Source: a virus
Reading direction: 5' to 3' (one strand)
Length of the DNA stretch: 64,000 bases
Virus record (IMG/VR): IMGVR_UViG_3300045988_183673
Position 1 is the stretch's first letter. The number at the start of each line of letters is the position of its first letter. This document shows positions 7,611 through 34,143 of the stretch, piece by piece. Both the position numbers and the translations under genes were made by a program. Below the pieces are notes generated by a model. It made no database searches. It was given only the letters and a program-made list of their open reading frames with translations, and was not told the DNA's origin.

Positions 7611-7637
7611 GGGAATCACATCCTTTCCAATGTATCT

Positions 7638-8954: not shown

Positions 8955-8959
8955 TCGAA

Positions 8960-8995: not shown

Positions 8996-9006
8996 CAGAA
9001 ATTATT

Positions 9007-10035
9007 TTAACACGGAATCAAAAATTTAACTCTGAAAGAACCGTTCTTAACAGAACGCGAATACCTCTTTTCGTTCAATGCAGCGCACACTTTTTGTGCG
9101 GATGACTTATCTGCATATCGCTTTGCGCCTTCCTCATCCAGCGCAACGAAAAGGCTGGAGCGAGTATTTTTCGCAACAAACTTCTCTGTGCCATCAACAT
9201 CCTCGAAAGCAATAATCGCATCGAATGGTTTACTTTGAACTTTTGTGGATACGAGCCTCGTTTTTTTTAAAGATGGAAAAACCATCGAGAAATCGTGCTG
9301 AATCGCTGCTGCTTCCTCAAACGTGAATTCCTTCGCATCTTTTACATCAGATGTCATACAAACACGATTAGGAATATTCTTTCCTGCTTCGTTTTTATAC
9401 TCTATCTTTTCTACGTACCGCTTTCCTTCCTTAATCAGGACTTTTTCATGGCCGCGAGGCTTTCTGCTTGGCATCCGAATATCCTCAGACATAAAATTGA
9501 TTTCAAAGAAAACATCAGTCTTATTGTTTTTGTTCAACTCTTTCTCTTTGGATTTCGCACTTTCAGCCCATGCAAGAAACGACTTTGTGTCACGAACTAT
9601 GACTTCACATTCCGATGCAGATGTCAAACGCATATCTTCTGTATTTTTATAGTACAGAACACGACAGGAAAATCCGGTTCGATGATTCGCTTTTAGCAAA
9701 TCCTCAATGGTAACAGCAGAAGTCATACCGGAATCCAACCAGCGCCGAATATCCTTGCCGTATACCCACCGACTACCATTTTTCCACATCTCGCAATCGG
9801 CACGATTCGGCTGCATCATGTGTGCAAACTTGTCATAAAGTCCTTCCTTGTTAAGCGCCAATGCATTGAGCATCAAAGTCCAATCCCGACAACGACGCTC
9901 GCTGTAGTGATTGCCCGCCCAGTGTCGTTGCGTTACATTGTTGGGGCCTATAAGACACACGGGAGTATATAAATCAACTCCCATCTCGTCCGTTGCTTTT
10001 AAAAATACCTTCTTATACATGATTTCATATCCCAT
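9007..10035 (-). CDS. Hypothetical protein (342 aa)
   Basis: Long ORF with codon usage consistent with its neighbours. No motif recognised. Confidence 0.55.
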   Translation of the reverse strand: MGYEIMYKKVFLKATDEMGVDLYTPVCLIGPNNVTQRHWAGNHYSERRCRDWTLMLNALALNKEGLYDKFAHMMQPNRADCEMWKNGSRWVYGKDIRRWLDSGMTSAVTIEDLLKANHRTGFSCRVLYYKNTEDMRLTSASECEVIVRDTKSFLAWAESAKSKEKELNKNNKTDVFFEINFMSEDIRMPSRKPRGHEKVLIKEGKRYVEKIEYKNEAGKNIPNRVCMTSDVKDAKEFTFEEAAAIQHDFSMVFPSLKKTRLVSTKVQSKPFDAIIAFEDVDGTEKFVAKNTRSSLFVALDEEGAKRYADKSSAQKVCAALNEKRYSRSVKNGSFRVKFLIPC

Positions 10036-10052
10036 GAAAGTTTACCTCCTAA

Positions 10053-10595
10053 TCATGCAGCACCTTTCGTACCACACTGAGAACCGTTAGATTCTCCCTT
10101 GGTAATTTTTCCAGAAGTCCACGGCCCGGTGTATATGCCTACTTCTCCAAACTGCTCCAGCAAAATATCCTGAATTGCGTCCAGATAATGCCGGTAATGT
10201 TGTTTCTGCAGACCGGATAAATCTACATCGCCGTACTCGGACTCCTTCTGAATCAGTTCGACAGCCTCGGCCCATTCGTTATCCTCAACGATGATATAGA
10301 ACAACTTGTTTTCGAGAATAACCTTTCCGTTCCTGTGGTTAGGCAGCCAAGTCTGATTGGGCTCCTCGAAACTTGGGTAACGGCGCATCATCTCATTTAC
10401 AAGGTTTGTACGATACTCGTCCAGCAACAACTGGCTTGCATCATCATCGAATTCGAATTCCGGCATCTCCTCATAGGAAATATCCTTCAGCAGCCTTTGC
10501 TCGGAATCGTCCTTTTTGGTGTAACAGAGGACATTGTCATAGTCTACATAAACAACGCCTTCGTATTTCCCATCGGGACAAATATTACCTCTGCC
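10053..10595 (-). CDS. Hypothetical protein (about 180 aa)
   Basis: Start set at MGRGNICPDG (RBS GGAGG 9 nt upstream). The longer ORF-track version overlaps the upstream gene. Confidence 0.5.
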   Translation of the reverse strand, partial: GRGNICPDGKYEGVVYVDYDNVLCYTKKDDSEQRLLKDISYEEMPEFEFDDDASQLLLDEYRTNLVNEMMRRYPSFEEPNQTWLPNHRNGKVILENKLFYIIVEDNEWAEAVELIQKESEYGDVDLSGLQKQHYRHYLDAIQDILLEQFGEVGIYTGPWTSGKITKGESNGSQCGTKGAA

Positions 10596-10602
10596 CATAA
10601 AA

Positions 10603-11244
10603 TCAATCCTCCACAATAGTTTCAATTTGCAGAATTCGAGCATAGCAGGAACCGTGATTTCCGTAAATCCCGTAACCGCCATCCTCATATTCCTTGCTTT
10701 CATCTTCCGTAACGTCACAGACATCTTGTACACAGGGCATGGACTCCGCATGAAGAAAATCAACAGCCTTATCTACCGCGTCACAGGAATTTAATGCGCG
10801 AACAATGACATTCATAGGCCATGCAAGCCCACTATCTACAGTTACCTTGTAGATATTGTTGCCATCCCACGCATCGCCATTGGCAAGGTAAAGGTTTTCA
10901 CCGAAATACCATCCGTTGGCATACGGATAAATGGTCTCAAGGTCAAAATGCTTAGCAATTTCGCCAAGCCGTCCTTCCTGCATCACAAGACCATGACTGT
11001 CCTGCAAGTTGGTAAAGGACGAAATTCGTTTCAGCACAGCACTCTCGGAATGCATATCACAGATAGTCTCTTTGATAACCTCATCGATTTCATCCCATGT
11101 ACTGGCATCCACGATGAATATGGCGTTATCGCTGTACTCAAGTACCCAAATAGTGTGATTTTCTTTCTTTACATCCTTCGTAGGAAGGAAAACGACATTG
11201 TTGATTTTAAAAGTGTCATTACAAACAGAAATCGGCATACTCAT
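10603..11244 (-). CDS. Hypothetical protein (213 aa)
   Basis: RBS AAAAGGAGCG upstream of the ATG at 11244. Confidence 0.55.
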   Translation of the reverse strand: MSMPISVCNDTFKINNVVFLPTKDVKKENHTIWVLEYSDNAIFIVDASTWDEIDEVIKETICDMHSESAVLKRISSFTNLQDSHGLVMQEGRLGEIAKHFDLETIYPYANGWYFGENLYLANGDAWDGNNIYKVTVDSGLAWPMNVIVRALNSCDAVDKAVDFLHAESMPCVQDVCDVTEDESKEYEDGGYGIYGNHGSCYARILQIETIVED

Positions 11245-11276
11245 AAAATTACGCTCCTTTTTACTTGTTTGACAAC

Positions 11277-11312
11277 AAAAATACCGCCACCTCTTACGAG
11301 ATAGCGGTATAT
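11277..11312 (-). terminator. Conserved accgccatctc-type leader hairpin plus U-run (copy), 30 nt upstream of the 10603..11244 start
   Basis: Minus strand ATACCGCTATCTCGTAAGAGGTGGCGGTAT-TTTTGTTG. Confidence 0.5.
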
Positions 11313-11340
11313 CGATTTTGAATTTTTGCTGCCTTTTATT

Positions 11341-11380
11341 TATCGGATATACTTAGTATATTGACTTTGCAGCAAAAGGC
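11341..11380 (-). promoter_or_regulatory. TTGCTGCAAAGT-box (copy 4) with a 17-bp palindrome ATATACTAAGTATAT
   Basis: Minus strand TTGCTGCAAAGTCAATATACTAAGTATATCCGATAAA. Confidence 0.45.
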
Positions 11381-11400
11381 AAGAAGACTGCGCTGCAGGC

Positions 11401-12474
11401 TTATCTTGCGAACAGCTTTTTCACCATACTGGCAGCATTATCGCCTTCTGCCGAACCCTCTAACTTACTGGCAACGAAATCAACGACAGCCATTGCCATC
11501 CAATTTTCGGTTCCGTACATTTCAAATGCTTCTTTGCGTGCATCACAATAGGTGAACGCAACAGCGTTATTCAGAATCGCCATGCCCAGAACTTCATTGA
11601 CATCGTCTGTCGTGTAATTACGCAAAAATGTCTCTAAATCCGACGTTTCTTCGTCTGCCGTCTCCTTGATATTGTTTTCGAGCCAACGTTTCGAAATGGC
11701 TACGGTTTCCTCTACACTTTCATAGTCTTCATCGACGCAGCGGGTCAGAAATACGGCCTCATCCGGACCAAGATTTTCATCCTCACTACACGAACTTGTC
11801 ACGGACTTTTTGAAAAGCTCAGGAACTTTCTCCGTTCCCATTTCGCCGATGATGTACTGTTTGGCGTCGTCAAAACTCGAAAAAGACTTGTAAGAGCTCA
11901 CATACTCCAAAGACCTAAACTTGTTCTCAGCTATATCGATGATAGCTTCTGACAAGGAGGTTTTTTGGGGATGTTTTTCATCCTCAAGGGAAAGAAGCAG
12001 CAGTTTACGCAGTTCTCGGATATCGAGCGCATCAAGGTTTACGAATTCATGAACCGCCATAAAATCATGGTCAGTGATTTTGGTGATGGCATAAAATTCG
12101 AACTCTTCTGTGCCGAATTGACGACGGCACTCAAAATTGTCCGCATCAATCAAATACCACCGGGTAGCCTCACGTTCTACCTTACACAGTGCTTCCGAGA
12201 GCTCCAACAGCATACGCTTGATGGCATCTGCATCATCAAGAAGCTCTCGCAAACCCGGCGCACCAGACATGCCGAGGTTTTCTTTTGCGTGCTCTTCCGG
12301 GTCAAAGTCATTCGCGTAATCAAATACCTCATCACAGAAATTCAGTTTTGGAACGGTGAAATAGAAATCTTCACCAGCAGGACTGCCCTGACTTAATTCA
12401 ACGGTATCGTTGTCATCATAAGACACAGACCAACCAAGTTCCTCCCATTTTTCCTCAAACTGATACAAAAACAT
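11401..12474 (-). CDS. Hypothetical acidic protein (357 aa)
   Basis: RBS GGAAAGGGGA 6 nt before the ATG. Confidence 0.55.
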   Translation of the reverse strand: MFLYQFEEKWEELGWSVSYDDNDTVELSQGSPAGEDFYFTVPKLNFCDEVFDYANDFDPEEHAKENLGMSGAPGLRELLDDADAIKRMLLELSEALCKVEREATRWYLIDADNFECRRQFGTEEFEFYAITKITDHDFMAVHEFVNLDALDIRELRKLLLLSLEDEKHPQKTSLSEAIIDIAENKFRSLEYVSSYKSFSSFDDAKQYIIGEMGTEKVPELFKKSVTSSCSEDENLGPDEAVFLTRCVDEDYESVEETVAISKRWLENNIKETADEETSDLETFLRNYTTDDVNEVLGMAILNNAVAFTYCDARKEAFEMYGTENWMAMAVVDFVASKLEGSAEGDNAASMVKKLFAR

Positions 12475-12993: not shown

Positions 12994-13473
12994 TTACAAG
13001 TTAAGTGTGACAGGACGTTCACTCAATTCATATTTCTTTGTCTCAACGCCGGAAATCCTGAACATGTGACGCGCTGCAATATTATTATTGGAATTTTTGT
13101 ACTTATCGTCCAGATAGACAATACGCTTGATTCCGCTTTGAATGATTGCTTTCGCACACTCATTGCACGGGAAGAGCGTGACATACATCGTAGACCCGTG
13201 CAGGTCTTTCCCGGCATTGAGGATAGCGTTCAGCTCCGAGTGACAGACATACATATACTTGGTTTCGAGTTCATTTCCTTCCCTGCCACAAGGCATGATA
13301 TCGTCGTCGCAGCCAATCGGCATACCGTTGTATCCCAGTGACAGGATTTTATTGTCACGCACAATGCATGCGCCTACCTGACTGTTAGGGTCTTTGCTGC
13401 GCATTGCAGATAACATCGCAATACCCATAAAGTATTCATCCCATGAGATATAATCTTTCCGTTTTTCACTCAT
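12994..13473 (-). CDS. dCMP deaminase (cytidine/deoxycytidylate deaminase family, ComEB-like)
   Basis: Zinc-ligand motifs CHSELNAIL (H-x-E) and PCNECAKAI (PCxxC). N-terminus MSEKRKDYISWDEYFMGIA as in dCMP deaminases. Start set at that M (RBS GAGGAG 7 nt upstream). Confidence 0.8.
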   Translation of the reverse strand: MSEKRKDYISWDEYFMGIAMLSAMRSKDPNSQVGACIVRDNKILSLGYNGMPIGCDDDIMPCGREGNELETKYMYVCHSELNAILNAGKDLHGSTMYVTLFPCNECAKAIIQSGIKRIVYLDDKYKNSNNNIAARHMFRISGVETKKYELSERPVTLNL

Positions 13474-13477
13474 GTAT

Positions 13478-13774
13478 TTACTCCTCTTCTTCTTTGATGA
13501 CCTTATACCGGCTTTCAATCTGATAATCATCGCCGTCCCAGCAACGAACCACAAAATCGAAGTCATCCGGGTCTTCATCGACCGCAAAGAACACGCTCTC
13601 TGCACTGCCGTTATTTTCCCGGTTGCTTAAATTCAGTTCCTGCGCGGCCGCAAAAGCATTCAGCTCTGCTGCCATATATGCCATATCCTCTGTCGGATAG
13701 GATGCAGGCAGATATTCATCCTCGGACTTATGCGCGGCGTTGTAATAGTATCCGCGTTTCAAAATCTTATACAT
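13478..13774 (-). CDS. Hypothetical acidic protein (98 aa)
   Basis: ORF abuts the deaminase start. Confidence 0.5.
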   Translation of the reverse strand: MYKILKRGYYYNAAHKSEDEYLPASYPTEDMAYMAAELNAFAAAQELNLSNRENNGSAESVFFAVDEDPDDFDFVVRCWDGDDYQIESRYKVIKEEEE

Positions 13775-15758: not shown

Positions 15759-17165
15759 TTAAGCATGTTCAGGCAACCACTGCTGCGGGTAGGCTCGAAG
15801 TTTGTTGCGTGGCACACAATCGTTCAGAGCGGAGTTTTCAGCGAGCGCCATATCGATGATGTAATAGTCATCACCATTACGCATCACATCAATACTCCAC
15901 TGCCCTACCAGTTCGACAGCAGGAAGAATCTTCTTAATTTCCTCCAGAATCATCCGAGCACTGTCATCGTATCGAGATTGCAGGATATCCTCGTGCATCT
16001 GATAGATGACATAGTCGTGGCGTTCCTGCGGAGTGCTTGCGTTCTTGAACTTACCCTTCATTACATCGGCTCGCCAATAAGGGCTGATACCCAGCACCTC
16101 ATCAGCGTCGAAATCGACGAATACGCGGTACTCAGTATGCAGCGGCAAACCGTTGTAGATGGTCGGGTTGTGTTCCTTGTCCTTGATATATTCCCTGAGC
16201 ACCCACTCGTTTGTGGTATTCGCACCATAGAAGCAGGTATTGTTCAAAGGCGAAGCCATAGAACAGGTCAGATGATTCAGGAACAGGAAATACTCGCCCA
16301 TCTCATTGATTTCCTTCGGGTCATGGATATGAGCGTTGCGAAACTCATACTTGGAAGAATAAGTTCCGGTCTTGATGAAGTAATCCTCGTGCTCATCCAG
16401 CTTGAATATCCGCTTGCAATAACGGTTTACGATTTCCTTGGTTACGGGATTCAGGGTTTCAAAACCAAGGCGAGTGAGCTGCAGCATCGGCAGCGGAACA
16501 CGCAAAATCTTGGTATCAGGAATCCTGAAGAATTTGTTCCCGTACAACGCTTTTGCCAGCGGCGGAAGCCAAAATCCCATCGTGTTGGGATTCATTTCGA
16601 GCATCTGGTAGGTGAAGTCGTCGAGGTCAAGAATATCAAGACCCTGACGGAACTGGTTGTAGTAGAACTTTTTCATGCGGTCATCGCGTACATCCTTGTA
16701 CTCGGCGTAATTCTGAAGCAGAATCTTATACGACGGCTCCGAAATATCGACCTTCACGAGATTTCCTGTCAGCTGAGGTCTGAGCTCTTCCGGGTATTTT
16801 TTCAGGTCATTGTTCGTTACCGGCACAGCGTATCGAGATGCTGCATAGTTTACATAATATCCGCCGCGTTTATCATTGTAGATGTACAGGCGAGTACCAT
16901 CTGTTAACTCACCTACGATACGGTCAATGAGTGTTTCAAGGTCCCGCGTAAACGGCACCCTCTTGTCAAACATAGCTTTGACAGTAGCGGTATCCCACTG
17001 TAAAAAGTTCTCGGATAATGCCCCGCTGTCCAGCACCTGTTTCTTGTAGGTGTCCTCGAATGTTTTGAGGGCATCAGGGCTGGTTTTCAGCATTGCGGCA
17101 AGTTCTTCGTAGGAAAACGATTTATCTTCCCTTTTGGTCATCATTTTACCAATTTTGGCAATCAT
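15759..17165 (-). CDS. Hypothetical protein with a possible ATP-grasp-like C-terminal region (about 468 aa)
   Basis: The C-terminal WSIDVMRNGDDYYIIDMALAENSAL resembles the ATP-grasp E-x-N strand. Start set at MIAKIGK (RBS AAGGAGG upstream). Confidence 0.4.
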   Translation of the reverse strand: MIAKIGKMMTKREDKSFSYEELAAMLKTSPDALKTFEDTYKKQVLDSGALSENFLQWDTATVKAMFDKRVPFTRDLETLIDRIVGELTDGTRLYIYNDKRGGYYVNYAASRYAVPVTNNDLKKYPEELRPQLTGNLVKVDISEPSYKILLQNYAEYKDVRDDRMKKFYYNQFRQGLDILDLDDFTYQMLEMNPNTMGFWLPPLAKALYGNKFFRIPDTKILRVPLPMLQLTRLGFETLNPVTKEIVNRYCKRIFKLDEHEDYFIKTGTYSSKYEFRNAHIHDPKEINEMGEYFLFLNHLTCSMASPLNNTCFYGANTTNEWVLREYIKDKEHNPTIYNGLPLHTEYRVFVDFDADEVLGISPYWRADVMKGKFKNASTPQERHDYVIYQMHEDILQSRYDDSARMILEEIKKILPAVELVGQWSIDVMRNGDDYYIIDMALAENSALNDCVPRNKLRAYPQQWLPEHA

Positions 17166-17191
17166 ATTTTCGATTTCCTCCTTTTTGGGAA

Positions 17192-18214
17192 TCAGGTGTT
17201 TGCAAAATTCGGATTCTTCCAAATCAACTTATTCCCGTAATAGACTTCGGGAATGTACTTGATGGGAATTCTGCGATTGTCTTCGAGTTGCGAATCGTTG
17301 TTCGCGATAAACTCCTCGATGCGATTTTCTTCACTGCGCGGGGTGATGTTGCAAGTCGAAAAACCTCCACCGTACAGGATATCACTGTTCATCATACCTT
17401 TGACCGGATACTTTACTTCGGTCGTTTTACCGTTGATGTTCAGGACAAGGCGAACGGTTTCGTATTGCTTAGCAAGTTCCACAAGAAGCCTGAACATGAT
17501 TTCCTGAGTGTTCGGACTATTGTACTTTCTCATATACTCTTCCGTCAACTCTTCCACCACAGCCAATGTAATCCCGTATAGGCGTCCAGACCGCCCGGAA
17601 TTTGCCTTTTTGATTTTCTCCATCGTCCGTTCAGCCCAGCCGGTGGGATTAGCAAGATAATCCACTACCAGTTCATCGGCATTTGTGGATGTCAGGCCAA
17701 AGCAAGACCCGTTTCCAATCTCATCGACAATGCTGTCAATAGGGCTGCGATAATTCTTATACCCCTTTATTATGCGACAGAAAGCGTTCTGCCGTGCTAT
17801 CTTGTCGTAATGACTGCCCTTGAGAATTTTCTTGTCTTCTTCCGTCACATTCTCTCGGAACATATCGAACAGCTTCTGTGCCATTTCCTCTATGACAGAA
17901 TCCGAGGTAAAAGAAGAACGGCAGAAAATCGTTTTGAAGTCCTGTGTTTCATTGACGGTTTTGGCATTGTCGACAACGAGGCAAAGGAAGCGTATCTCTT
18001 GGTTGAATGTTACGGGTTTCTTTTCCAAGGTTCCATAAAACCGCTGCCCGTACAAGGCATCTACCTTGTGTTCGCCATTGGCGAGCGGAACACGAATGAA
18101 ACGGTAGTAGCGCCCGGACGGTTTTCCGGTATCGGGAATTGTGTTGCCTTCGAACACGGATGCGCCGGATTTGATAGCCTGCTCAAAATCCTCACGAGTT
18201 AAATTGATAGTCAT
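17192..18214 (-). CDS. Hypothetical protein (340 aa)
   Basis: RBS GAAAGGAAG 5 nt before the ATG. Confidence 0.55.
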   Translation of the reverse strand: MTINLTREDFEQAIKSGASVFEGNTIPDTGKPSGRYYRFIRVPLANGEHKVDALYGQRFYGTLEKKPVTFNQEIRFLCLVVDNAKTVNETQDFKTIFCRSSFTSDSVIEEMAQKLFDMFRENVTEEDKKILKGSHYDKIARQNAFCRIIKGYKNYRSPIDSIVDEIGNGSCFGLTSTNADELVVDYLANPTGWAERTMEKIKKANSGRSGRLYGITLAVVEELTEEYMRKYNSPNTQEIMFRLLVELAKQYETVRLVLNINGKTTEVKYPVKGMMNSDILYGGGFSTCNITPRSEENRIEEFIANNDSQLEDNRRIPIKYIPEVYYGNKLIWKNPNFANT

Positions 18215-24850: not shown

Positions 24851-25450
24851 TTATTCTTTGTTATCCGAAGAAATTTTCGGAGACTTCTTCTTCTCAACGA
24901 AAGCATCAATCGTTCGGCCGAAACGATTAAGAAGCATTGCGCCAAGATAAAGAATGATGCCGCTAATCATGATACCAACATCAAGCGTCTCAAATCCTGC
25001 GAAACTCTTGCAATAAATAGAACTGACTGCGAGAGCGCCAAGCGTTGGCAGCGAAGCAATCGTTACCGTAAGTGCCGCATACACAACACTATTCAGAACA
25101 GTACCAATACTTGCAATGATGCCGCGCTTTTTAAATGTGCGCTGCTTATCGTAGGACATCTGATAAGCCCCGATAAGACTTGGTTCACGAATAATGTCGC
25201 GCAGATGCAGCAGGCACCACGCCAAAACAGCACACCCGATGCCGCAGCCGACCTTATAGGCACTCATGCGAGAACCCCACAGGTCATTTGCGTTGGCGGG
25301 AACGACGAACGCCAGAATGTTGAACAGGACGGCAAACAAGACGAACATTGCCATGTGGGGATTCTTGGCAGTGTTGCGAGCCTCGTTCTTTGCCTTACTG
25401 GCGACTTCCTCGGTCTGATTGTGAATTTTTACATTGAGAATCTTTTCCAT
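24851..25450 (-). CDS. Integral membrane protein (4 predicted TM helices)
   Basis: Hydrophobic segments. RBS AAAGGAAAGG upstream. Confidence 0.55.
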   Translation of the reverse strand: MEKILNVKIHNQTEEVASKAKNEARNTAKNPHMAMFVLFAVLFNILAFVVPANANDLWGSRMSAYKVGCGIGCAVLAWCLLHLRDIIREPSLIGAYQMSYDKQRTFKKRGIIASIGTVLNSVVYAALTVTIASLPTLGALAVSSIYCKSFAGFETLDVGIMISGIILYLGAMLLNRFGRTIDAFVEKKKSPKISSDNKE

Positions 25451-25495: not shown

Positions 25496-25813
25496 TTAAT
25501 CTCTGTGATAGCGTTGCATCATACCGAACATAGCCGCAAGCGCCAATGCAAGGTAGATGTAAGTGTATCCCTTTTCAATCATGTTCAGAATCACGATGGT
25601 AAAGCTCGAAAAAGCACCACAATAAAAAGCGGCACCAAGTTTATCGACCAAAAACATCAACATCTGGGCAACGACTGCCGCAGGAACAAGAAGCTTGAGA
25701 CGCTTGGCCTCAATGATTCCGTCCCAGTCAAGAACAGCAATGAAGCTGGCTCCCATGCAGATGACCCAAACAAAAGCGAAAATAAGGGTTGCTGTGTCAA
25801 AAAAGTTACTCAT
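25496..25813 (-). CDS. Small membrane protein (3 TM), tandem paralogue 1
   Basis: About 45% identical to the 25869..26183 product (FFD...DWDG..EAK...YCG.F.S.TI..L.MIE.....Y...YLA...AAMFGM..RYHR). Start set at MSNFFDT (RBS GGAGG 8 nt upstream). Confidence 0.55.
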   Translation of the reverse strand: MSNFFDTATLIFAFVWVICMGASFIAVLDWDGIIEAKRLKLLVPAAVVAQMLMFLVDKLGAAFYCGAFSSFTIVILNMIEKGYTYIYLALALAAMFGMMQRYHRD

Positions 25814-25868
25814 ATCAGTTACCTCCAAAATTACTGATGGTTTACGGGTTTATGGACATCGAATCGCA

Positions 25869-26183
25869 TTATCTGTGATAGCGCTTTGTCATGCCAAACA
25901 TAGCTGCAATCATAATCGCCAAATATGCGTACAAATACAAGTTCTCAATCATTCCAAGAACTGAAATTGTAAGACTGGCGAACATACCGCAATACAGAAC
26001 AGCACCAATTTTTTTGATGATGAACAGCGTGGCTTGCGCAATGATGGCGACAACGAGAAAAACTTTGATGTATTTAGCCTCAAATAAACCATCCCAATCG
26101 ATGGCAAGGAAGATACAAGCCCCCACAGCGAGAGCCCAAACCAAAGCAGCAACAGATGCAACAGCGTCAAAGAAGCTTAACAT
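25869..26183 (-). CDS. Small membrane protein (3 TM), tandem paralogue 2
   Basis: See paralogue 1. Start set at MLSFFDAV (RBS GGAGGT 7 nt upstream). Confidence 0.55.
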   Translation of the reverse strand: MLSFFDAVASVAALVWALAVGACIFLAIDWDGLFEAKYIKVFLVVAIIAQATLFIIKKIGAVLYCGMFASLTISVLGMIENLYLYAYLAIMIAAMFGMTKRYHR

Positions 26184-26304
26184 AGCGAATACCTCCATGT
26201 TTTAAATTAGGTTAATGTTCGGACATCTATATAAACAGCAAAAAGCCGCCAATGGGACAATCCACTGGCGGCTCAGTTGCCGATTGCAATAATACAGTTA
26301 AATC

Positions 26305-26362: not shown

Positions 26363-27334
26363 TCAGAAGACTTCGTCAAGTTTTGCACATACAATAAAAC
26401 GAGTATCGTAATTATCACTGCCTGAACAGGTGGACAAAATCAAAACCTTATCATTCAATCCAACTTCTGTGGCGTACTGATTGTAAGAGTAAGCTTTCAT
26501 ACTTGCAATCTCTGTCAGAAAATACGAATCATCCGGATTCGCAATGGTATAACTTGGGTCAATAGGATAATCGGCAACGGCAAAGATTTTCCATCGTGTC
26601 TGTTGTTCACCCAAAGTAAGATAAATATACCGATGTTCTTTTGCAAAGTTGACATCGCGGAAGTATTTCAAAACACTGAATTTCTTGTGCATACTGTTTC
26701 CGTTGCTATGTCCAAAAATAACAGTTACTCTGTACATATCGTCAACATTGCTGACATTCCATTCGGAGGGAACAAAATAAGCGCCCCAGATACTTTCCCT
26801 ATCGAACTCATTGTGAGTCAGGTAATAATCATCGTCTGTGGGATGCTGCAAAATGGGCTCATCTGTAACATCAACGCCGGGAACAGTTAAGTAACCAACG
26901 GTGTTCTTGGAATACGCTGGCTTTGGTGTCGGTTCCGGTTCTGAATCACTCTCACTTGAATTAGAAGACGGGATAAGAATCGAGGGGGTAGAAACGGGTT
27001 CTTCTACATCGTCGGAGATGTCTCCTGTTTCATATGCAGGAATATGATAGTAATCATACGCCTTCCATCCAATATAGCCAATCATGGCAATAAGAACGAT
27101 GCAGATTACGACCAACAAAACTGTCCAGATGGAAAATCGCCGTTTCTCTTTGCCCTCTGACGCGTCCATCGCATCCATCGATTCATTGTCATCCTCGTCA
27201 TGACTTGCCTTTTGATGAGGGAAGTTTTCACCAGTTCCATCATCCTCATCATTTGGAATGTAATTGTACGCACCAAGTTCCTGCTCGAAATGTTCTTCTT
27301 CAGGCAGTGGTGGAATAATAGGTGTTTTTGCCAT
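26363..27334 (-). CDS. srtB: Class B sortase (membrane-anchored, with an acidic N-terminal cytoplasmic region)
   Basis: Catalytic His in VIFGHS, catalytic Cys in LILSTCS, Arg in RFIVCAKL, and the sortase-fold motif YLTVPGVDVTDEPILQ. One TM helix. RBS AAGGTGATG upstream. Confidence 0.75.
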   Translation of the reverse strand: MAKTPIIPPLPEEEHFEQELGAYNYIPNDEDDGTGENFPHQKASHDEDDNESMDAMDASEGKEKRRFSIWTVLLVVICIVLIAMIGYIGWKAYDYYHIPAYETGDISDDVEEPVSTPSILIPSSNSSESDSEPEPTPKPAYSKNTVGYLTVPGVDVTDEPILQHPTDDDYYLTHNEFDRESIWGAYFVPSEWNVSNVDDMYRVTVIFGHSNGNSMHKKFSVLKYFRDVNFAKEHRYIYLTLGEQQTRWKIFAVADYPIDPSYTIANPDDSYFLTEIASMKAYSYNQYATEVGLNDKVLILSTCSGSDNYDTRFIVCAKLDEVF

Positions 27335-27345
27335 AATACATCACC

Positions 27346-28509
27346 TTATTCAGCTGCGGCAGACCGCTCGTACACATCAATGCAGTAGTTGCCCATAATC
27401 TTGTTGTACATGCACTCCTGTGCCAAAGGACCTGCCCCATAGGTATCAACGGCGTTATCATAGTTACTGCCAATATAAGCTTTCACTTCATCGACAGACG
27501 GTTTATAGTCCTGTTCCTCTGCCAGATACTGCGCAACAAGGCTCAGTAAAACATTTTCTTCCGTCTGACTACGAAGACTTTCTGAATACTCCTCCGAGGT
27601 CTTATAATTGCTGTATGTCTGAACGAATGTCTCCAAGTCCATATTGTAGGCAGTTGCTTCGTTTTCGACATACTTCAAGTTGGTTTCAAGACTCAGGTTG
27701 ACAAGGTCTGTCGTATCCTTTTTGAGTTTTACATTGTCAATGAAATACTGTTCAATCTCATTCTGAATCTTATTCATACGAAGATTCTCTTCAACATATT
27801 CACGAAGCAGGTCTACTGTAGTTACAGCAGTGCCGTCTTGCAGCTTGTAGCCACTCATGATACCGGCAACATCAGCATCTGTCATGCTATATTGAGAAAT
27901 CTTATTAAGCGTTACATGGAAAACAGCTTCCTTGTTGGCGAGCTCGATAGTCTGCTCGCCTGTGGTTCTATCTGTTGTACTGCTATATCCATCAGGGAAT
28001 GTTACTGTGACGTCAAACGAATCCCCCGTGTTATGCCCGACGATTTGCTCTTCAAATCCGTCAATAAAGGTATTGGAACCGAGTTCCAAATCGTAGTCTT
28101 CTGTTGTTCCACCGGTAAAAGCAACACCATCAACCGTACCCTCATAGTCAATGTTCACAACATCGCCTTCCTGTGCGGCGCGGTCTGTTACCTCTGTCGT
28201 CAGCTTGTAATTGGACTGAAAATAATCCAACTCGCTTTGAATCTCCTCGTCTGTAACGACGTATACATCTTTGCTGACCGTATACTTCTTATAATCCTTG
28301 GGCATCTTTATGTATTTGGACGCAGTCACATCACGAAAATACCCGTCATCATCAAGACCGAGGTCATACTCAACAGCGGAAGCTGTTTCGGAGGTGGCTG
28401 TTTCCGCAGTCTCAGATGCACTTGTATCGGCCGTATCTTTACTGCACGCGGTCAATGCAATACATGCAGCACTGATGACCGCCAGAATCATTTTTGCGTT
28501 TTTCTTCAT
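27346..28509 (-). CDS. Lipoprotein with a trigger-factor-like FKBP-type PPIase domain (extracytoplasmic foldase, PrsA-analogue)
   Basis: Lipobox ALTAC-S after a signal peptide. GDVVNIDYEGTVDGVAFTGGTTEDYDLELGSNTFIDGFEEQIVG matches the trigger-factor PPIase core. Start set at MKKNAKM (RBS AAGGAG 6 nt upstream). Confidence 0.65.
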   Translation of the reverse strand: MKKNAKMILAVISAACIALTACSKDTADTSASETAETATSETASAVEYDLGLDDDGYFRDVTASKYIKMPKDYKKYTVSKDVYVVTDEEIQSELDYFQSNYKLTTEVTDRAAQEGDVVNIDYEGTVDGVAFTGGTTEDYDLELGSNTFIDGFEEQIVGHNTGDSFDVTVTFPDGYSSTTDRTTGEQTIELANKEAVFHVTLNKISQYSMTDADVAGIMSGYKLQDGTAVTTVDLLREYVEENLRMNKIQNEIEQYFIDNVKLKKDTTDLVNLSLETNLKYVENEATAYNMDLETFVQTYSNYKTSEEYSESLRSQTEENVLLSLVAQYLAEEQDYKPSVDEVKAYIGSNYDNAVDTYGAGPLAQECMYNKIMGNYCIDVYERSAAAE

Positions 28510-28565
28510 GAAAATCTCCTTTATAAAAATACCCCGGCAGACAGGTTGCCTACCGGGGCAGTATT

Positions 28566-28817
28566 TTAAACGAACAGGAACGGAACGTGAAGCAACAGAG
28601 CGTATGCCGCATCCATAATGCCAATAATAACGGCGGATACAGCACTCACAACAAGAACTGCTCCGGTTCGATGGAGCGTGTTGTGCATACTCGGCCAAGT
28701 CACATTTTTGGGTGCAACCAAATTGTGAAGCTTCTTAGGCGTGCTCTTGACGAAAGAAGGAATTGCCTTCACGAAATTCGCAATAGCCGTTCCTACCTTT
28801 TTCAGTTTATCTTTCAT
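28566..28817 (-). CDS. secE: SecE-like small membrane protein
   Basis: KNVTWPSMHNTLHRTGAVLVVSAVSAVIIGIMDAAYALL matches the SecE K-V-x-W-P motif plus a single TM. Start set at MKDKLKK (RBS GGAGG 6 nt upstream). Confidence 0.6.
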   Translation of the reverse strand: MKDKLKKVGTAIANFVKAIPSFVKSTPKKLHNLVAPKNVTWPSMHNTLHRTGAVLVVSAVSAVIIGIMDAAYALLLHVPFLFV

Positions 28818-29068
28818 GCCGCACCTCCTACTCCGGTTACTACGAACATGATGATTGCGATAACAAGCAGAATAGCTGTACATACAGCAACCAGTTTATT
28901 TGCGGACGTTTTCGTGCTGTCTTTAGCATTCGAGCGCATTGTATCACTGATTCCGGTGATAACACTAAGACTGTTCTTGTCGGCCTTATCCATGGAAAGC
29001 GTAACCGCACAAACCAGAACAGAAACCAACAGAATCAAGATGCACAGAATGATTTCATAAATTGCCAT
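28814..29068 (-). CDS. secG: SecG-like small membrane protein
   Basis: An 84-aa protein with N- and C-terminal TM helices (MAIYEIILCILILLVSVLVCAV...LVAVCTAILLVIAIIMFV) separated by a polar loop, as in SecG. Confidence 0.55.
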   Translation of the reverse strand: MAIYEIILCILILLVSVLVCAVTLSMDKADKNSLSVITGISDTMRSNAKDSTKTSANKLVAVCTAILLVIAIIMFVVTGVGGAA

Positions 29069-29083
29069 TGTGTTGCCCTCCCG

Positions 29084-30424
29084 TCAATTCAAGAAACCCT
29101 TGTGATGGCGAACCACCAAATGGCTGTTAAGAGAATCGATAACTTCAAGCGTAACACCTGTGACAATCAACAGACTGGTACCGCCAAAGTGCATGTTCAG
29201 ACCTGTAACCGCAGTTGCCAAGATAGGCACACATGCAATAACCGAAAGAACAAATGCTCCCGAACCGGCGAGAGAATGGCAAGCATTGCGCAAATAATCA
29301 CTGGTAGCTTTGCCTGCTCGAATACCGGGGATACTGCCGCCGTTCTTGCGCAGGTTGTTTGCCATTTCGATGGGGTCGAATGTGATGTCGATGTAGAATA
29401 AGTTGAATGCGAAAATCAGGGCTACATACGCAACATCATAAATCCAATTCCGCGAATTCCAAGATGCCAGCGCCATATACAGGCTGGGGTGCTTGTTGTA
29501 ATCGAGGAACATCGTCACGAGAGACGGCATACTGCAAATGGTGGACGAGAAAATAATAGGCATAACACCCGACATAATCAGTTTGATGGGGATATAACTG
29601 GACTGACCAGTGGATGCTTTGTTCCCCACATTTTTACCGGCATACTGAACAGGAACGCGGCGCTCTGCATCGCTTGCGAAAACGACATAGAAGGTGGCCG
29701 CCAAAACAAAGAGGATGACGCCGGGAATCATCAGATAATACCACCATCCATTTTCTTTGCCCATTGCAATAGAGTTCTGGAACAACGAGATGACAGCATC
29801 CCATCTGGAAATGATACCGGTAAAGATGATAAGGGAAATACCGTTGCCAATACCTTTTTCGTCAATCAGCCATCCAAGCCAGATGACGATTTGAGAACCA
29901 GCAGTCAGAATGGCAATAACAGTAATGGCTTCCACGACCTGCGAAATGCCGGAAGTGTATTTCATCGCACCGTAGTTCTTCATAATAAAGAAGTACCCGA
30001 TAGCTGTTACGACCGCCAAACCACAACCAACATACTGCGTGATTTTATTGATTTGCTTCTGCCCGCCGATGTCCTTGCTGATTTCTTCCAGTTTCGGAAT
30101 CGCAACAGTCAAAAGCTGGATGATGATGCTTGCGTTGATGTATGCAGATACGCCAATCGCAAATACCGCACACTGAGAAAGTGCGCCACCGGAAACCAGA
30201 TTGTAATAATCCAGTACAGAGGTGCTTCCGAACATAGTCTGAAGCGCAGCGGTGTTTACGAACGGAATCGTAATACCGCAACCCAGACGATAAATCAGAA
30301 GACAAAGGATGGTGAAGAGAATCTTGTTGCGAACATCATCCACCATCAGCTTCTGGAAGATGGTGCTGTTCGAATAAGACTTTTTGAGTTTCGGCTTTTT
30401 CGCCGGATTTTTAATGTTGTCCAA
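29084..30424 (-). CDS. secY: SecY-family protein translocase subunit (paralogous/accessory; not in the rplO-secY-adk context)
   Basis: VRNKILFTILCLLIYRLGCGITIPFVN (SecY N-terminus), ten hydrophobic segments, and the conserved SASIIIQLLT plug/TM2 region. TTG start with RBS GGAAGGAG. Confidence 0.85.
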   Translation of the reverse strand: MDNIKNPAKKPKLKKSYSNSTIFQKLMVDDVRNKILFTILCLLIYRLGCGITIPFVNTAALQTMFGSTSVLDYYNLVSGGALSQCAVFAIGVSAYINASIIIQLLTVAIPKLEEISKDIGGQKQINKITQYVGCGLAVVTAIGYFFIMKNYGAMKYTSGISQVVEAITVIAILTAGSQIVIWLGWLIDEKGIGNGISLIIFTGIISRWDAVISLFQNSIAMGKENGWWYYLMIPGVILFVLAATFYVVFASDAERRVPVQYAGKNVGNKASTGQSSYIPIKLIMSGVMPIIFSSTICSMPSLVTMFLDYNKHPSLYMALASWNSRNWIYDVAYVALIFAFNLFYIDITFDPIEMANNLRKNGGSIPGIRAGKATSDYLRNACHSLAGSGAFVLSVIACVPILATAVTGLNMHFGGTSLLIVTGVTLEVIDSLNSHLVVRHHKGFLN

Positions 30425-30448
30425 TGCTTACTCCTTCCGCGACTGAGA

Positions 30449-30724
30449 TTATCGAGCAAAGAAAGCAACGATGATTCGCATCAGAAAGGCTACAACGGCC
30501 AACTTCGTTGCAAGCCACATGAACCAATCGAGTTTGTCGATACCTTCGTCGAATACATTTGTTGCGGCAGCATCTTTTTTGTTACTGTCGCAATCCCCGT
30601 CAACATGGTTTTTCTTGATTTTGTTGCGATTAAGCACAAACAAAGTTCGAAACAAAGCCCATGTTGCAATACAGAATCCGTATACGATTAGAAGCTCGAT
30701 ACAGAAACTGTGCAAAGACGACAT
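30449..30724 (-). CDS. Small membrane protein (2 TM)
   Basis: Start overlaps the stop of the upstream gene (translational coupling). Confidence 0.5.
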   Translation of the reverse strand: MSSLHSFCIELLIVYGFCIATWALFRTLFVLNRNKIKKNHVDGDCDSNKKDAAATNVFDEGIDKLDWFMWLATKLAVVAFLMRIIVAFFAR

Positions 30725-31401
30725 TAAGCGGATGCGCCGTTGGCGTCAGGAGTCGTATTGGAGGCGGTCTCGGCAACGGCCTCTACCGGAGTTTCCGTGA
30801 CAGTCTCTGCAGGAGAAGTGATATCCCCGGTGATTGTGGGGACGTTGGCATCTTCTGCGACCGACTCATTGACGGGCGCTTCAATAACCGCATCCTTGAC
30901 TCCATCAGCAGTCACTTTCTTTGCTGCGATTTTTGCGAAGTGCTCATTGCGCTTTTCACGGCAAGCCTTGCAGCGGGTGGGGAGCTTGTAGTCATGGACG
31001 ACATACCAGTACAGCTCGCGATTGGTAAACTGCAGCTTCTGACCGCAATCTGCGCAGGTGTCTTCCAGACCGATGTTATCCAGCCCACGCTTCACGAAGT
31101 CGCGATGAATCTTGCGGCATTCCGGGCAGCGGTTCGGCAGAGAATAACCGTGGCTCTCGAAGAAATCGCGGTCACGATTGGTGATGTCGAATTCATGACC
31201 GCAGTCAACGCACTTGCGGGTCTCAAACACCTCATTGCTCTTTGCATCAGCTTCCTTGCGAGCTTCATCCTCTGCGCGGCGCTTTGCGAAATCGTCACGC
31301 ATACGACACTCGCGGCACAACACCTCGCTCTCATTGGCGGTGCTGAACGGCTTGTTGCACTTCTCACAGGTCTTGCGGAATTTCTTTGCTGCATCTTTCA
31401 T
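30724..31401 (-). CDS. Zinc-ribbon protein with three C-x2-C...C-x2-C pairs and an Ala/Thr/Glu-rich tail
   Basis: CEKCNK..CRECR, CVDCGH..CPECRK, CADCGQ..CKACREK. RBS AAAGGAGA upstream. Confidence 0.55.
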   Translation of the reverse strand: MKDAAKKFRKTCEKCNKPFSTANESEVLCRECRMRDDFAKRRAEDEARKEADAKSNEVFETRKCVDCGHEFDITNRDRDFFESHGYSLPNRCPECRKIHRDFVKRGLDNIGLEDTCADCGQKLQFTNRELYWYVVHDYKLPTRCKACREKRNEHFAKIAAKKVTADGVKDAVIEAPVNESVAEDANVPTITGDITSPAETVTETPVEAVAETASNTTPDANGASA

Positions 31402-31445
31402 GGTTTAAGTCTCCTTTATGGTAAAAAAATTAAAATAATGATTGA

Positions 31446-31961
31446 TTAGGCGTTGGGACCAGAAAAAGAATCGATAATTTCATCAACGTGGACGTTCAAG
31501 TCGGACTTGTCATCATCTTTCTTGGCGGGCTGTTTTACAGGAACAACGATATCAGGCTCATTCTTCTTTTTCTCCGCCGCCTTTTCTTCAACAGGCTTCT
31601 CTGCGGATTCATCCTTGGCCTCAGTGACCTCGGACGCGCTATCGGAATCCACCTTGCCGGATTCATCCTTATCGGCATCAGGATTCGCCTCGGTTGCCTT
31701 ATCAGTATCCTTTTTCGTCTCATCATGCTTGCGTTCTACGCGGATGACATGAACGGCAGCCACGGGCGCGTGATGAATATCATCGATGCACTCATCGCAA
31801 CCGCAGCACTCATCACAGTCATCACAATCGTCGTCATCATAAAGATAACCGTCATCCTCCAACTCTTTGATGACCTCGTTCTTCACATACTTGGTCGTGA
31901 GTTTCAGGGCAACGGCTGCAACAGTGGCGGCACCAATAACGGACAGAATGTTCTTCTTCAT
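31446..31961 (-). CDS. Secreted acidic Cys-rich protein (signal peptide; DDCDDCDECCGCDEC cluster)
   Basis: N-terminal signal peptide, then a poly-Asp/Cys cluster, then a Lys/Glu/Asp-rich tail. Confidence 0.5.
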   Translation of the reverse strand: MKKNILSVIGAATVAAVALKLTTKYVKNEVIKELEDDGYLYDDDDCDDCDECCGCDECIDDIHHAPVAAVHVIRVERKHDETKKDTDKATEANPDADKDESGKVDSDSASEVTEAKDESAEKPVEEKAAEKKKNEPDIVVPVKQPAKKDDDKSDLNVHVDEIIDSFSGPNA

Positions 31962-32008: not shown

Positions 32009-32037
32009 ATTATACCACATAAATATAATGTGGTCAA
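32009..32037 (-). promoter_or_regulatory. Sigma-A-type promoter, TTGACC-17-TATAAT (extended -10), for the secY operon
   Basis: Minus strand TTGACCACATTATATTTATGTGGTATAAT. Confidence 0.65.
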
Positions 32038-32179
32038 TACAAATTGCGAATAAAAAAATGCCCCGCCGAAGCAAGGCACGTAAAATATCAGAAGTGTCTT
32101 ATCAGATTGCGCCGTAAAACCCCTTGTTTTAGCTATGGGGATATAAGGCGCAGTGAAACTTAAGTTGTAATGTTTACAA

Positions 32180-33490
32180 ATCGCACAAGTATTGAATGGC
32201 GAGCTGTGATATAATAAATCAAAAAACTTCTCAACGGCAAAAGGATAAAATGGGATGACATTTCAAAAGGGTGTAAAATTTAGAATCTACCCAAATCGGG
32301 AGCAGCGCAATCTGATTGACCGCACTCTCGGTTGCAGCAGACTCATTTACAATAAAGGTCTTGCCATGCGGGAGGACGCTTTCAAAAGCGGGGAAAAGTG
32401 CGGCTACAAGCAAACTTCTGCTATGCTGACAGCGCTCAAGCAGGATGCGAACTACGCGTTTCTCAAAGAGGTGGATTCCATTGCTTTGCAGCAAGCGCTG
32501 CGAAACCTTGATGCCGGATACACAAACTTTTTCGAGCATAGAGCTGCACATCCAAAATTCAAAAGCAAAAAAAGCGCCAAACAATCATACCGCACACTCA
32601 ATATTGATAACGGTATACGCATTTCTAATAAGCGCATTCACTTACCGAAAATCGGTTGGGTAAAAGTTCATCAGTCTATGGAGATTGGCGCAATTCACAA
32701 CGCAACAGTAGCACGCACAGCCACCGGTAAATATTTCGTAGTTCTTAATGTGGAATATGACCCTCAGCCTATGCCAAACAACGGTTGTGTAGTAGGCATT
32801 GATGTTGGACTCAAAGAATTCTATTCCGATAGTAACGGTACTGTGGTTAATAACCCCAAATACTTGGAGAAAAAAGCCAAAAAACTTGCTCGCGAACAGC
32901 GGCGTTTGGCTCGCAAACAGAAAGGCTCACATAATCGTGAAAAGCAGCGTATAAGAGTCGCTGCCGCCCACGAAAAGATTGCTAATCAACGAAACGATTT
33001 CCTTCAAAAACAGTCTACTATGCTGGTGCGTGAAAATCAAACCATCTGCATCGAAGACCTTAATGTAAAAGGAATGCTTCATAATCATAAGCTTGCAAGA
33101 GCTATTTCCAGTGTTTCGTGGTCGTCTTTCTTTAGCATGCTGGAGTACAAAGCCTATTGGTACGGTTGTACAGTAATTCGTGTACCTACATTCTATCCGA
33201 GCAGCCAAACATGCAGTTGCTGCGGCTATAAGAATGTGGCTGTCAAGAACCTCAGCATCCGTCAATGGGAATGTCCGTCTTGTCACACGGTTCACAACCG
33301 CGATAAAAACGCTGCCGTTAATATTTTGCATAAAGGGCTTGAGCAAAAGTCCGCTTGATAAATACATACCGTACCGTGGGACACACGGGAAGTAACGCCT
33401 GTCTGACATCGTGTAAGACGCAACAACCTCGGTTGCTGTGCAGTGGTGGTTGATGCAGGAATCCCCCTGCTTTAGCCGTGGAGAGAATGT
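32180..33490 (+). mobile_element. IS200/IS605-family TnpB-only element (IS1341-like). Boundaries approximate.
   Basis: A single (+)-strand tnpB interrupts a purely minus-strand region. The structured 3' flank (33359-33490) is a candidate omega-RNA/right end. Confidence 0.55.
32255..33358 (+). CDS. tnpB: TnpB (IS605 OrfB-family RNA-guided endonuclease-like transposase accessory protein)
   Basis: RuvC-like GIDVGLK near residue 180, IEDLNVKGM, and the C-terminal zinc finger CSCCGYK...CPSCH. 367 aa. Confidence 0.85.
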
Positions 33491-34143
33491 CAACGAATAC
33501 CGTATCCCATATCTTGTCGTACAAGTTTTATTTCCGAAGTGTCTTTCAGACTGTTCGGGAACATCTCTTTAGCGTAATCCTGATAGCGTTTCGTAACATA
33601 CTTTACGCCGAGTTCTTCCGGTTTGATATCTGCTGCGGTTTTTCTGATACGTTGATTCGATGCGCGAGAAGAACATTTCTTGCATAAGCAAAGCGCGACA
33701 TTAGAAATGCCTTCATTCCCGCAGACGGCGCATTTTGCATGCGTCTTATCTCTATCCCATTCCTTTATTTCTTTTCCGTTTTCCGGGTCTATTACAAGGC
33801 GGTTGCGCTTACAGCGGCGCACATAGAACACGCTTTGGCAGCAGGCAACGCATAAGCCTAAATCTTTGCGGTAGTGAGAAGAGAGACCATCTGTGACTTC
33901 ACCGCACAAAAGGCATTTATTTTGAGAAACAATATTCTTGTACTTATTAGCCTTGTTCTCTAATAGCTTTTTTATGATTTCACCGGTCTTATCGGGTTCA
34001 GGAGGATACGCATCCCATCCGTTTACAGGAAAAAAGCTGGAAAAGTCGTTCCATTCATCATCAGAAAACGAACAGCCAACAGGTTTGAGTATCTTAGGGA
34101 GTTTATTGGACCATACTTTTTCTGCATTAGACTTCTTCGGCAT
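33490..34143 (-). CDS. Cys-rich zinc-ribbon protein (about 217 aa)
   Basis: Multiple CxxC pairs. Start set at MPKKSNAEK (RBS AAAGGAGGAG 5 nt upstream). The 3' end abuts or overlaps the IS right end. Confidence 0.5.
   Translation of the reverse strand: MPKKSNAEKVWSNKLPKILKPVGCSFSDDEWNDFSSFFPVNGWDAYPPEPDKTGEIIKKLLENKANKYKNIVSQNKCLLCGEVTDGLSSHYRKDLGLCVACCQSVFYVRRCKRNRLVIDPENGKEIKEWDRDKTHAKCAVCGNEGISNVALCLCKKCSSRASNQRIRKTAADIKPEELGVKYVTKRYQDYAKEMFPNSLKDTSEIKLVRQDMGYGIR

Follow-up and report, generated by a model that had tools for sequence, protein, structure and literature searches.

The 64,000-nucleotide stretch of DNA deposited as IMG/VR virus record IMGVR_UViG_3300045988_183673, referred to here in its whole length as the window, is most probably part of a conjugative megaplasmid of the Hodor type, about 350 kb in size, from human gut Bacillota. 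Its minus strand encodes SecY, SecG and SecE, followed by a trigger-factor-like lipoprotein and a class-B-like sortase, and two giant surface proteins are encoded at the far end of the window. The reading that we consider probable is that the megaplasmid carries a second complete canonical SecYEG unit together with a foldase-sortase unit, and that these export and anchor the giant proteins. Both the module and this export-and-anchoring reading have already been published (Yuan et al., bioRxiv, February 2026; PMC12934698), and the finding itself is not new. The original prediction, made from the letters of the window, had come to the same reading, which is supported as far as sequence goes and was reached independently in the preprint, and it had not recognised the megaplasmid nature of the DNA. 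Those of its proposed checks that were run turned out in its favour.

Hodor megaplasmids are circular conjugative elements of 211-389 kb from the human gut, which were initially classed with huge phages and which fall into two groups with guanine-cytosine (GC) contents of 47.1% and 44.6%, the latter being group G2. Their backbone is composed of Rep_3, ParA, ParB, ParM/StbA and a type IV secretion system, and a terminase is present only at prophage insertions. The surface region has the order hyp-SecY-SecG-SecE-trigger factor-sortase B and adjoins proteins of 7,309-7,704 and approximately 2,642 residues (aa), which contain MBG/S-layer domains and sorting signals. The giant proteins and the sec, foldase and sortase genes are among the few genes common to both groups, and metatranscriptomes reveal secYGE and TF-srtB as separate transcripts. 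In the proposal of its authors, the giant proteins leave the cell through the plasmid Sec pore, with the trigger factor (TF) as their chaperone and the sortases as their anchoring enzymes (PMC12934698).

The window DNA is approximately 97% identical, over a compared 21 kb, to IMG/VR contigs of 88,901, 240,696 and 345,980 bp. Seven IMG/VR contigs encode the window SecY or a relative of it, three being of the window type and four carrying a SecY relative of 90% identity, and the largest contig of the second, G1-like kind has 389,222 bp. Near-identical SecY copies occur by the thousand in gut metagenomes, on contigs of up to 382 kb. The window probably belongs to G2, because its GC content of 45.5% fits the 44.6% of that group; the related contigs L002, L013 and L015 (48-49%, L002 having 48%) fit G1. 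The ParM/Alp-like partition gene represents the backbone within the window, and Rep_3, ParA/B and the type IV secretion system lie outside its 64 kb. Approximately 60 open reading frames (ORFs) of the window were scanned against Pfam, NCBIfam or PHROGs, and no ribosomal-protein, core metabolic or other core housekeeping family was found among them. Besides the partition protein, the window encodes a phage-type Dam methylase, a flotillin, a PIN-domain protein, an AAA_5 ATPase, a radical SAM protein and a TnpB, together with many ORFs without a family and a few that match phage protein families of no assigned function. The earlier view that the sec genes are an additional set, and not rearranged housekeeping copies, agrees with a large mobile element that holds a ParM-like gene and TnpB and has near-identical IMG/VR contigs of 240-346 kb.

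With 25 kb of the window as query, megablast found no match in phage and plasmid collections, and a tblastn of SecY against them returned only housekeeping secY of at most 45% identity, carried by pieces of chromosomes that had been deposited under plasmids or phages. A scan of 185,579 GTDB species genomes with the window SecY gave no relative and no host assignment, and a literature search for further reports of plasmid- or phage-encoded SecY found nothing.

The window SecY is a full-length protein with ten transmembrane (TM) segments, alignable end to end with the SecYs of Aquifex, Thermotoga and Geobacillus. With its residues mapped to E. coli numbering through the E. coli sequence (L017), the pore ring reads V/I/I/I/I/I, hydrophobic at all six of six positions. 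The plug motif GGAL and Arg357 of the C5 loop, which contacts SecA, are kept in the window as well as in all element-borne relatives, which settles in favour of an intact plug a point that the original prediction had raised. Between the window and L002 the proportion of nonsynonymous differences (pN) in secY is 0.058 versus a synonymous proportion (pS) of 0.605, and in comparisons with two lineages each of the six genes has a pN far lower than its pS, which is the mark of purifying selection; synonymous sites are saturated, so that an exact dN/dS is not computable and pN and pS are reported instead. By profile hidden Markov models (HMMs) the protein is not a SecY2, since both SecY2 models stay below their cutoffs, with 147.1 bits versus 249.6 for TIGR02920 and 146.2 versus 353 for NF009082.

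In a neighbour-joining tree with 200 bootstraps, the window SecY is found within a clade of element-borne SecYs with 100% bootstrap support. This clade is sister, with 68% support, to a second element clade (of the L008 and L109 type), and both are nested in the housekeeping SecYs of Oscillospiraceae such as Gemmiger, Subdoligranulum and Vescimonas with 90-100% support. Because of this nesting, the cassette is best read as a captured and diverged canonical SecYEG, and not as part of the SecY2 lineage. The element-borne SecYs are distinct from the housekeeping copies, which stand in the context rplO-secY-adk or secY-adk-map in five annotated copies and in L108. The nearest housekeeping SecYs, those of Gemmiger and Subdoligranulum, share only 45-49% identity with the window SecY, which carries clade-specific changes, for example P84A and E176W.

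The channel has two small partners. The 84-aa protein can be accepted as SecG because 17 of 19 family members, scanned singly, match PF03840 at E≤0.01 (best 3.4e-7) and no rival family recurs, even though the window member alone stays below the cutoffs (PF03840, 18.8 versus 29.2; TIGR00810, 20.4 versus 30.85). In gene position, in size and in its two TM segments it is like a SecG. A profile of five members had Aquifex SecG as its top match in the PDB, with a marginal E=0.07; a 19-sequence profile found nothing in the PDB, and a profile search of a large protein set returned family members only. The gene secE shares its first 4 nt with the end of secG and is preceded by the Shine-Dalgarno sequence GGAGG. 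A scan of IMG/VR for the exact SecA Walker-A motif M-x-TGEGKT gave 84 matches, none of them on the seven related contigs, which is a weak negative, and the main text of the preprint mentions no SecA (PMC12934698). The simplest reading is that the channel depends on the SecA of the host. The absence of SecA2, Asp1-3 and glycosyltransferases, noted before, extends to all scanned window ORFs and, for SecA2 and by that one exact motif, to the seven related contigs.

Four 'SecY' sequences from metagenomes, P0084-P0087, were initially taken as a 66%-identical housekeeping SecY and a possible clue to the host, and were dropped as such because they are hybrids with a Hodor 5' half. The first approximately 199 aa of P0084 are the window Hodor SecY (597 nt, 98.8% identity) and the remainder is a housekeeping SecY, with the switch at the conserved GIGNGIS motif. 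Its contig (L108, with the hybrid at 1-1354) has 60% GC, is from Oscillospiraceae, has the gene order secY-adk-map-infA-rpmJ-rpsM and is covered 2.75x. P0085-P0087 share the housekeeping middle segment of P0084, diverge from it again past the PIIF motif and differ from the window at scattered positions in their N-terminal parts. These hybrids are probably assembly chimeras; they may also have arisen by genuine recombination, in which case they would indicate a host.

The foldase is composed of a signal peptide with a lipobox, a disordered linker of approximately 25 residues, an FKBP peptidyl-prolyl isomerase (PPIase) domain and the C-terminal 'arms' of trigger factor. It aligns to trigger factor residues 125-395, without the ribosome-binding N domain, and against the TIGR00115 equivalog it reaches 171.9 bits, below the cutoff of 180.2, with only model positions 108-371 covered. 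The N-terminus, MKKNAKMILAVISAACIALTAC22, meets the lipobox pattern [LVI][ASTVI][GAS]C, from which lipidation is predicted, and at least 90% of 20 homologues share A21 and C22. In the AlphaFold model, with a pLDDT (predicted local distance difference test score) of 85, residues 1-44 are disordered and the protein is well folded beyond them; the top structural matches of the model are full-length trigger factors. Since the lipobox is present and the ribosome-binding domain is absent, the protein is expected outside the membrane, where it would act after translocation as a PrsA-like foldase on the outer side of the membrane and not as a cytoplasmic chaperone. The main text of the preprint does not describe its 'trigger factor' as a lipoprotein (PMC12934698).

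The nearest chromosomal relatives of the foldase, of 36-40% identity, are from Faecalibacterium, followed by those of Gemmiger and other Clostridia. The copy of F. prausnitzii (L022 8001-9143), annotated as 'trigger factor', has a lipobox and stands solitary among unrelated genes. All seven of the seven chromosomal proteins of this kind that were inspected have an N-terminal lipobox or membrane anchor in place of the ribosome-binding domain. Trigger-factor-like genes are common on the chromosomes of Faecalibacterium, Gemmiger, Lachnospiraceae and other Clostridia (L110-L189). The SecY and foldase genes point to a source resembling Faecalibacterium, Gemmiger or Subdoligranulum, organisms which are perhaps also the hosts.

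The sortase has TIGR03064, a class B model, as its best family, and all nine of its nine PDB matches are sortase B. Its GHSNG, LSTC and TRF motifs, which hold the catalytic His, Cys and Arg residues, line up with those of C. perfringens SrtB (5b23) and are kept in L002, L005 and L107. The enzyme is best termed class-B-like, a refinement of the sortase B originally named. Residues 1-66 form an acidic extension before the TM anchor, which is unusual for class B and is also found, poorly conserved, in L002, L005 and L107.

The presumed clients of the channel and the sortase are the two giants. The MBG protein, whose probable start is the ATG giving MQKPRKRF..., corresponds in its 2,671 aa to the ~2,642-aa protein of the Hodor plasmids, and the DUF11 giant, which runs past the window edge, corresponds to their protein of more than 7,300 aa (PMC12934698). 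Both end in sorting signals of the form N-x-K-T-G (NYKTG and NKKTG), as had been seen before; the giant genes, described then as downstream, lie upstream on the minus strand. Directly past the gene of the MBG protein, also on the minus strand, are genes for a 235-aa acidic lipoprotein with the lipobox FVGC (51545-52252), a 183-aa multi-TM protein (50745-51296) and, as the third, a 447-aa ORF (49517-50860), whose product begins with a signal or lipobox and has a TM segment at its C-terminus. These genes, within 49517-52252, probably correspond to the co-transcribed neighbours of which the preprint speaks (PMC12934698).

Four diverged lineages retain the linkage of the channel with foldase and sortase. 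Compared with the window, the G1-like L002 has a SecY of 90% identity, a TF-like protein of 72%, SecE of 72%, SecG of 73%, a sortase of 62% and an MBG protein of 84%, and its run of zinc-ribbon-SecY-SecG-SecE-TF-sortase is intact within a different neighbourhood. A 295-kb contig, L005 (SecY 59%, TF-like 59%, SecE 41%, SecG 35%, sortase 69%), has its genes in the same order as the window between ParM and the sortase, and so does a further lineage, L107 (SecY 73%, TF-like 62%, SecE 49%, SecG 51%, sortase 66%). The MBG giant is present where the locus extended that far, namely in L002, which is the case in which the co-occurrence with MBG proteins that the original prediction had proposed to check has been found. 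A variant of the third lineage, L004 (11879-12517, versus L005 11879-13983), has an identical SecY and a TF-like gene cut to 212 aa with no sortase behind it, from which it follows that the foldase-sortase unit can be lost.

All eight ORFs named in the original prediction are present on the minus strand, and their positions are given in Table 1 with those of the other features. The identities it gave to SecY, SecG, SecE, the lipoprotein with a TF PPIase domain and the sortase are upheld by the HMM, PDB and family-member scans.

Table 1. Features of the window, in the order of their positions.
Feature	Position	Strand	Evidence and remarks
tRNA-Thr(TGT) and tRNA-Glu(TTC)	14-229	-	at the window edge
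Terminator-like hairpin after the sortase gene	26243..26274	-	13-bp stem, 8 GC pairs, T run
Class-B-like sortase, 323 aa	26363..27334	-	~65-aa N-terminal extension, acidic and cytoplasmic; single TM segment; catalytic domain
Trigger-factor-like lipoprotein, 387 aa	27346..28509	-	FKBP_C 61 bits; lipobox LTAC22
Intrinsic-terminator-like hairpin	28530..28560	-	14-bp stem and T run; between secE and the foldase gene
SecE, 83 aa	28566..28817	-	single C-terminal TM segment; PF00584 33.4 bits (cutoff 22.7); TIGR00964 30.9 (cutoff 27.55)
SecG, 84 aa	28814..29068	-	two TM segments; PF03840 E=1.8e-3; TIGR00810 E=3.9e-4; full-length alignment
SecY, 446 aa	29084..30424	-	canonical bacterial type; TTG start; TIGR00967 330 bits versus cutoff 253.6; PF00344 7e-87
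Two-TM small ORF, 91 aa	30449..30724	-	doubtful; no family match (Pfam, NCBIfam)
Triple zinc-ribbon protein, 225 aa	30724..31401	-	cytoplasmic; three treble-clef/zinc-ribbon CxxC...CxxC units; PF13451 2.6e-10
Acidic, Cys-rich protein, 171 aa (DDDDCDDCDECCGCDEC)	31446..31961	-	N-terminal hydrophobic anchor; no Pfam family
Promoter-like site TTGACC-17-TATAAT with TG extension	32009..32037	-	11/12 matches, best of the region; before the acidic gene
Terminator-like hairpin	32079-32058		just upstream of the promoter-like site
MBG surface protein, 2,671 aa	52381..60396	-	seven MBG_2 repeats, signal peptide, NYKTG + TM + KKKK; complete
DUF11 giant, C-terminal 1,078 aa	60761..64000, beyond the window edge	-	seven DUF11 repeats, DUF7507 repeats, NKKTG + TM + HKRKK

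The genes of the module form a run on one strand, which had been described as an operon. They are read as at least two transcription units, because a strong terminator (28560-28530) separates secE from the foldase gene. The first extends from the acidic gene to secE, and the second is made up of the foldase and sortase genes. The promoter-like site is the likely start of the first unit. The predicted layout agrees with the separate secYGE and TF-srtB transcripts of the preprint (PMC12934698). Shine-Dalgarno sequences precede every module gene apart from the two-TM ORF.

Three ORFs precede secY in the first unit. The acidic Cys-rich gene has the strong Shine-Dalgarno sequence AAAGGAG, and its lineage-variable product was not detected in L002 or L005, with L107 holding a 149-aa positional counterpart; originally called secreted, it may be membrane-anchored or secreted, its topology being uncertain. 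The triple zinc-ribbon protein, identified as such before and borne out by its three CxxC...CxxC units and PF13451, is the 'hyp' of the preprint (PMC12934698) and is kept directly upstream of secY, with homologues of 63% identity in L002, 48% in L005 and 56% in L107; against the PDB it finds only generic zinc fingers. The two-TM peptide named earlier does exist as an ORF. It lacks a Shine-Dalgarno sequence, and neither L002 nor L005 has it; an 88-aa ORF of the same architecture stands at the same place in L107, a conservation that is positional only.

Further genes flank the module. Just upstream of its promoter, on the plus strand, a TnpB ORF (32255-33358) lies within an IS200/IS605-type unit (32104-33493), which is a polymorphic insertion. 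L010 and L012, IMG/VR relatives of 97% identity, lack it and have a clean junction (32103|33494) in its place, and L011 carries it. Just past the sortase terminator are, on the minus strand, two tandem paralogous genes for membrane proteins of approximately 110 aa (25496-25828 and 25869-26198) without a family match, followed by one for a 199-aa membrane protein (24851-25450).

Taken together, the identities of the parts, their intactness, the purifying selection, the conserved linkage and the location on a mobile element are observed, and they make up the frame of the probable reading given above. According to it, the giant MBG and DUF11 adhesins, which in this reading bear ordinary signal peptides, would be driven by the host SecA through the plasmid-encoded SecYEG. 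The lipid-anchored trigger-factor-like foldase would receive and fold them on the outer side of the membrane, as PrsA does elsewhere, and the sortase would cut them at N-x-K-T-G and link them to the cell wall, where the displayed adhesins probably serve cell contact for the spread of the plasmid. In this chain, the use of the plasmid channel by the giants, its powering by host SecA, the extracellular action of the foldase and the pairing of sortase and substrates are predictions from the gene content.

Several points speak against this export-and-anchoring reading. The link between the giants and the channel is one that we infer, and the dedication of the channel to the giant proteins is likewise inferred in the original prediction and in the preprint (PMC12934698). 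The absence of a plasmid SecA rests on one exact-motif scan and on the silence of the preprint about SecA, and the comparisons of SecY cover housekeeping copies from deposited records and not the host's own. The sortase reaches 77.9 bits versus the TIGR03064 cutoff of 153.75. The G1-like MBG protein (~2,623 aa; L002 1-4230, L013, L015) ends in AAQAPTG + TM + KKK and not in NxKTG, and therefore the pairing of motif and sortase is not a simple shared signature; with a G1-like sortase that is 62% identical, this suggests that sortase and sorting motif have changed together between the groups. Finally, L006 (SecY 70%; 10001-11834), L008 (52%; 7652-9416) and L109 (49%; 6737-8525) keep secY-secG-secE only, with replication and repair genes as neighbours and no foldase or sortase within 10 kb, which means that the benefit of the channel may not depend on either. 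These elements share other genes with the window (for example 12997-13626 at 82% in L006, and 15762-17228 at 48% directly after secE in L008) and are perhaps Hodor relatives that have yet to be described. Compared with the full module, the trio seems to be the older and the more widely distributed.

The trio-only elements also speak for an explanation that we regard as rather unlikely, according to which the plasmid SecYEG is a general booster of capacity or compatibility without a special tie to adhesins, foldase or sortase. With its own channel, a large element with many secreted and membrane proteins would avoid jamming that of the host or would work in varied hosts. The backbone genes that trio-only elements share with the window, the fully canonical type of the SecY and the separate transcription of secYGE and TF-srtB are consistent with this explanation. 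Against it, the trio stands directly beside the foldase and sortase genes in four lineages despite saturated synonymous divergence, and module genes and giants are among the few genes that both Hodor groups hold in common (PMC12934698). A more far-reaching form of the export reading is possible and is put forward tentatively: SecYEG, extracytoplasmic foldase and sortase would be an orthogonal export line, in no need of SecA2 and devoted to adhesins with lengths from 2,600 to more than 7,300 residues, in which the tethered foldase captures the emerging chain and biases its movement outward. The trio would then be an ancient marker of a larger family of gut mobile elements, as yet undescribed, that acquired it from Oscillospiraceae.

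Two further explanations concern the nature of the genes themselves. That they are the sole, rearranged housekeeping sec genes of a chromosome, or belong to a huge phage commandeering host secretion, is very unlikely. The deposition of the relatives as viral contigs in IMG/VR, the few ORFs that match phage families and the two tRNA genes would fit such an origin, but the scanned ORFs include no ribosomal or core housekeeping family and a ParM-like partition gene is present; moreover, Hodor elements have Rep_3, ParA/B/M and a type IV secretion system, with terminase only in inserted prophage (PMC12934698). An accessory Sec system (SecA2/SecY2) such as streptococci or staphylococci have, in which the small proteins would be Asp4 and Asp5, hardly deserves credence. 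The likeness, an extra SecY with two small membrane proteins and large adhesins nearby, is superficial, and the reading is rejected by the HMM scores (146-147 bits with the SecY2 models versus 330 with the SecY model) and by the tree, in which the protein groups with the housekeeping SecYs of Oscillospiraceae. For the two small proteins the matches are SecE and SecG, no SecA2-type motif was found on the related contigs in the scan for one exact motif, and neither an Asp1-3 nor a glycosyltransferase family is found in the scanned window ORFs.

A complete SecYEG on a transmissible plasmid is unusual and suggests that mobile elements may bring their own export route for surface proteins that are too large or too numerous for the host channel. 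In the human gut, giant surface proteins of this kind may set cell-to-cell contact and, with it, the spread of the plasmid. To the published account (PMC12934698), the analysis adds the prediction of an extracytoplasmic foldase, the likely dependence of the channel on host SecA, the apparent Oscillospiraceae ancestry of SecY and foldase, extra lineages and the difference between NYKTG and QAPTG in the two groups; the range of the cassette exceeds the two Hodor groups described so far.

Among known systems, the Hodor surface module (PMC12934698) is the one from which the window differs in nothing of kind. Gene set and order, giant neighbours, two units, GC content, ParM and TnpB are alike, and the relatives are of 240-389 kb. 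Beyond the main text of the preprint go the lipoprotein nature of a foldase without the ribosome-binding domain, the Oscillospiraceae-type origin of SecY and foldase, and the occurrence of the full module in L005 and L107 and of the trio alone in others.

With the housekeeping SecYEG of Bacillota, the plasmid set shares the full-length SecY with pore ring, plug and Arg357, as well as SecE and SecG of typical Gram-positive size. It is unlike them in having all three genes in one operon, whereas housekeeping secY stands in rplO-secY-adk, housekeeping secE normally adjoins nusG, and secG is solitary on the housekeeping contig L108. The accessory Sec systems (SecA2/SecY2, Asp1-5, Gtf) are similar in that a second translocon stands next to very large cell-wall-anchored adhesins; however, the presumed clients in the window are MBG/DUF11 repeat proteins and not serine-rich glycoproteins, and no SecY2 is present by HMM or tree. 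The foldase resembles PrsA as a lipid-anchored PPIase and chaperone, predicted on the outer side of the membrane near the translocon, but it combines an FKBP-type PPIase with the TF C-domain, whereas PrsA has a parvulin within an NC-domain frame. The sortase, lastly, departs from class B sortases in its score (78 bits versus 153.75), its ~65-aa acidic extension and the QAPTG of the G1-like substrate, and is like them in its best HMM, its PDB matches and its His-Cys-Arg motifs. The class B motifs NPQTN of S. aureus SrtB, NPKTG of B. anthracis SrtB and (S,P)PxTG of C. difficile SrtB are the background against which the N-x-K-T-G ends of the candidate substrates in the window can be seen as a further likeness.

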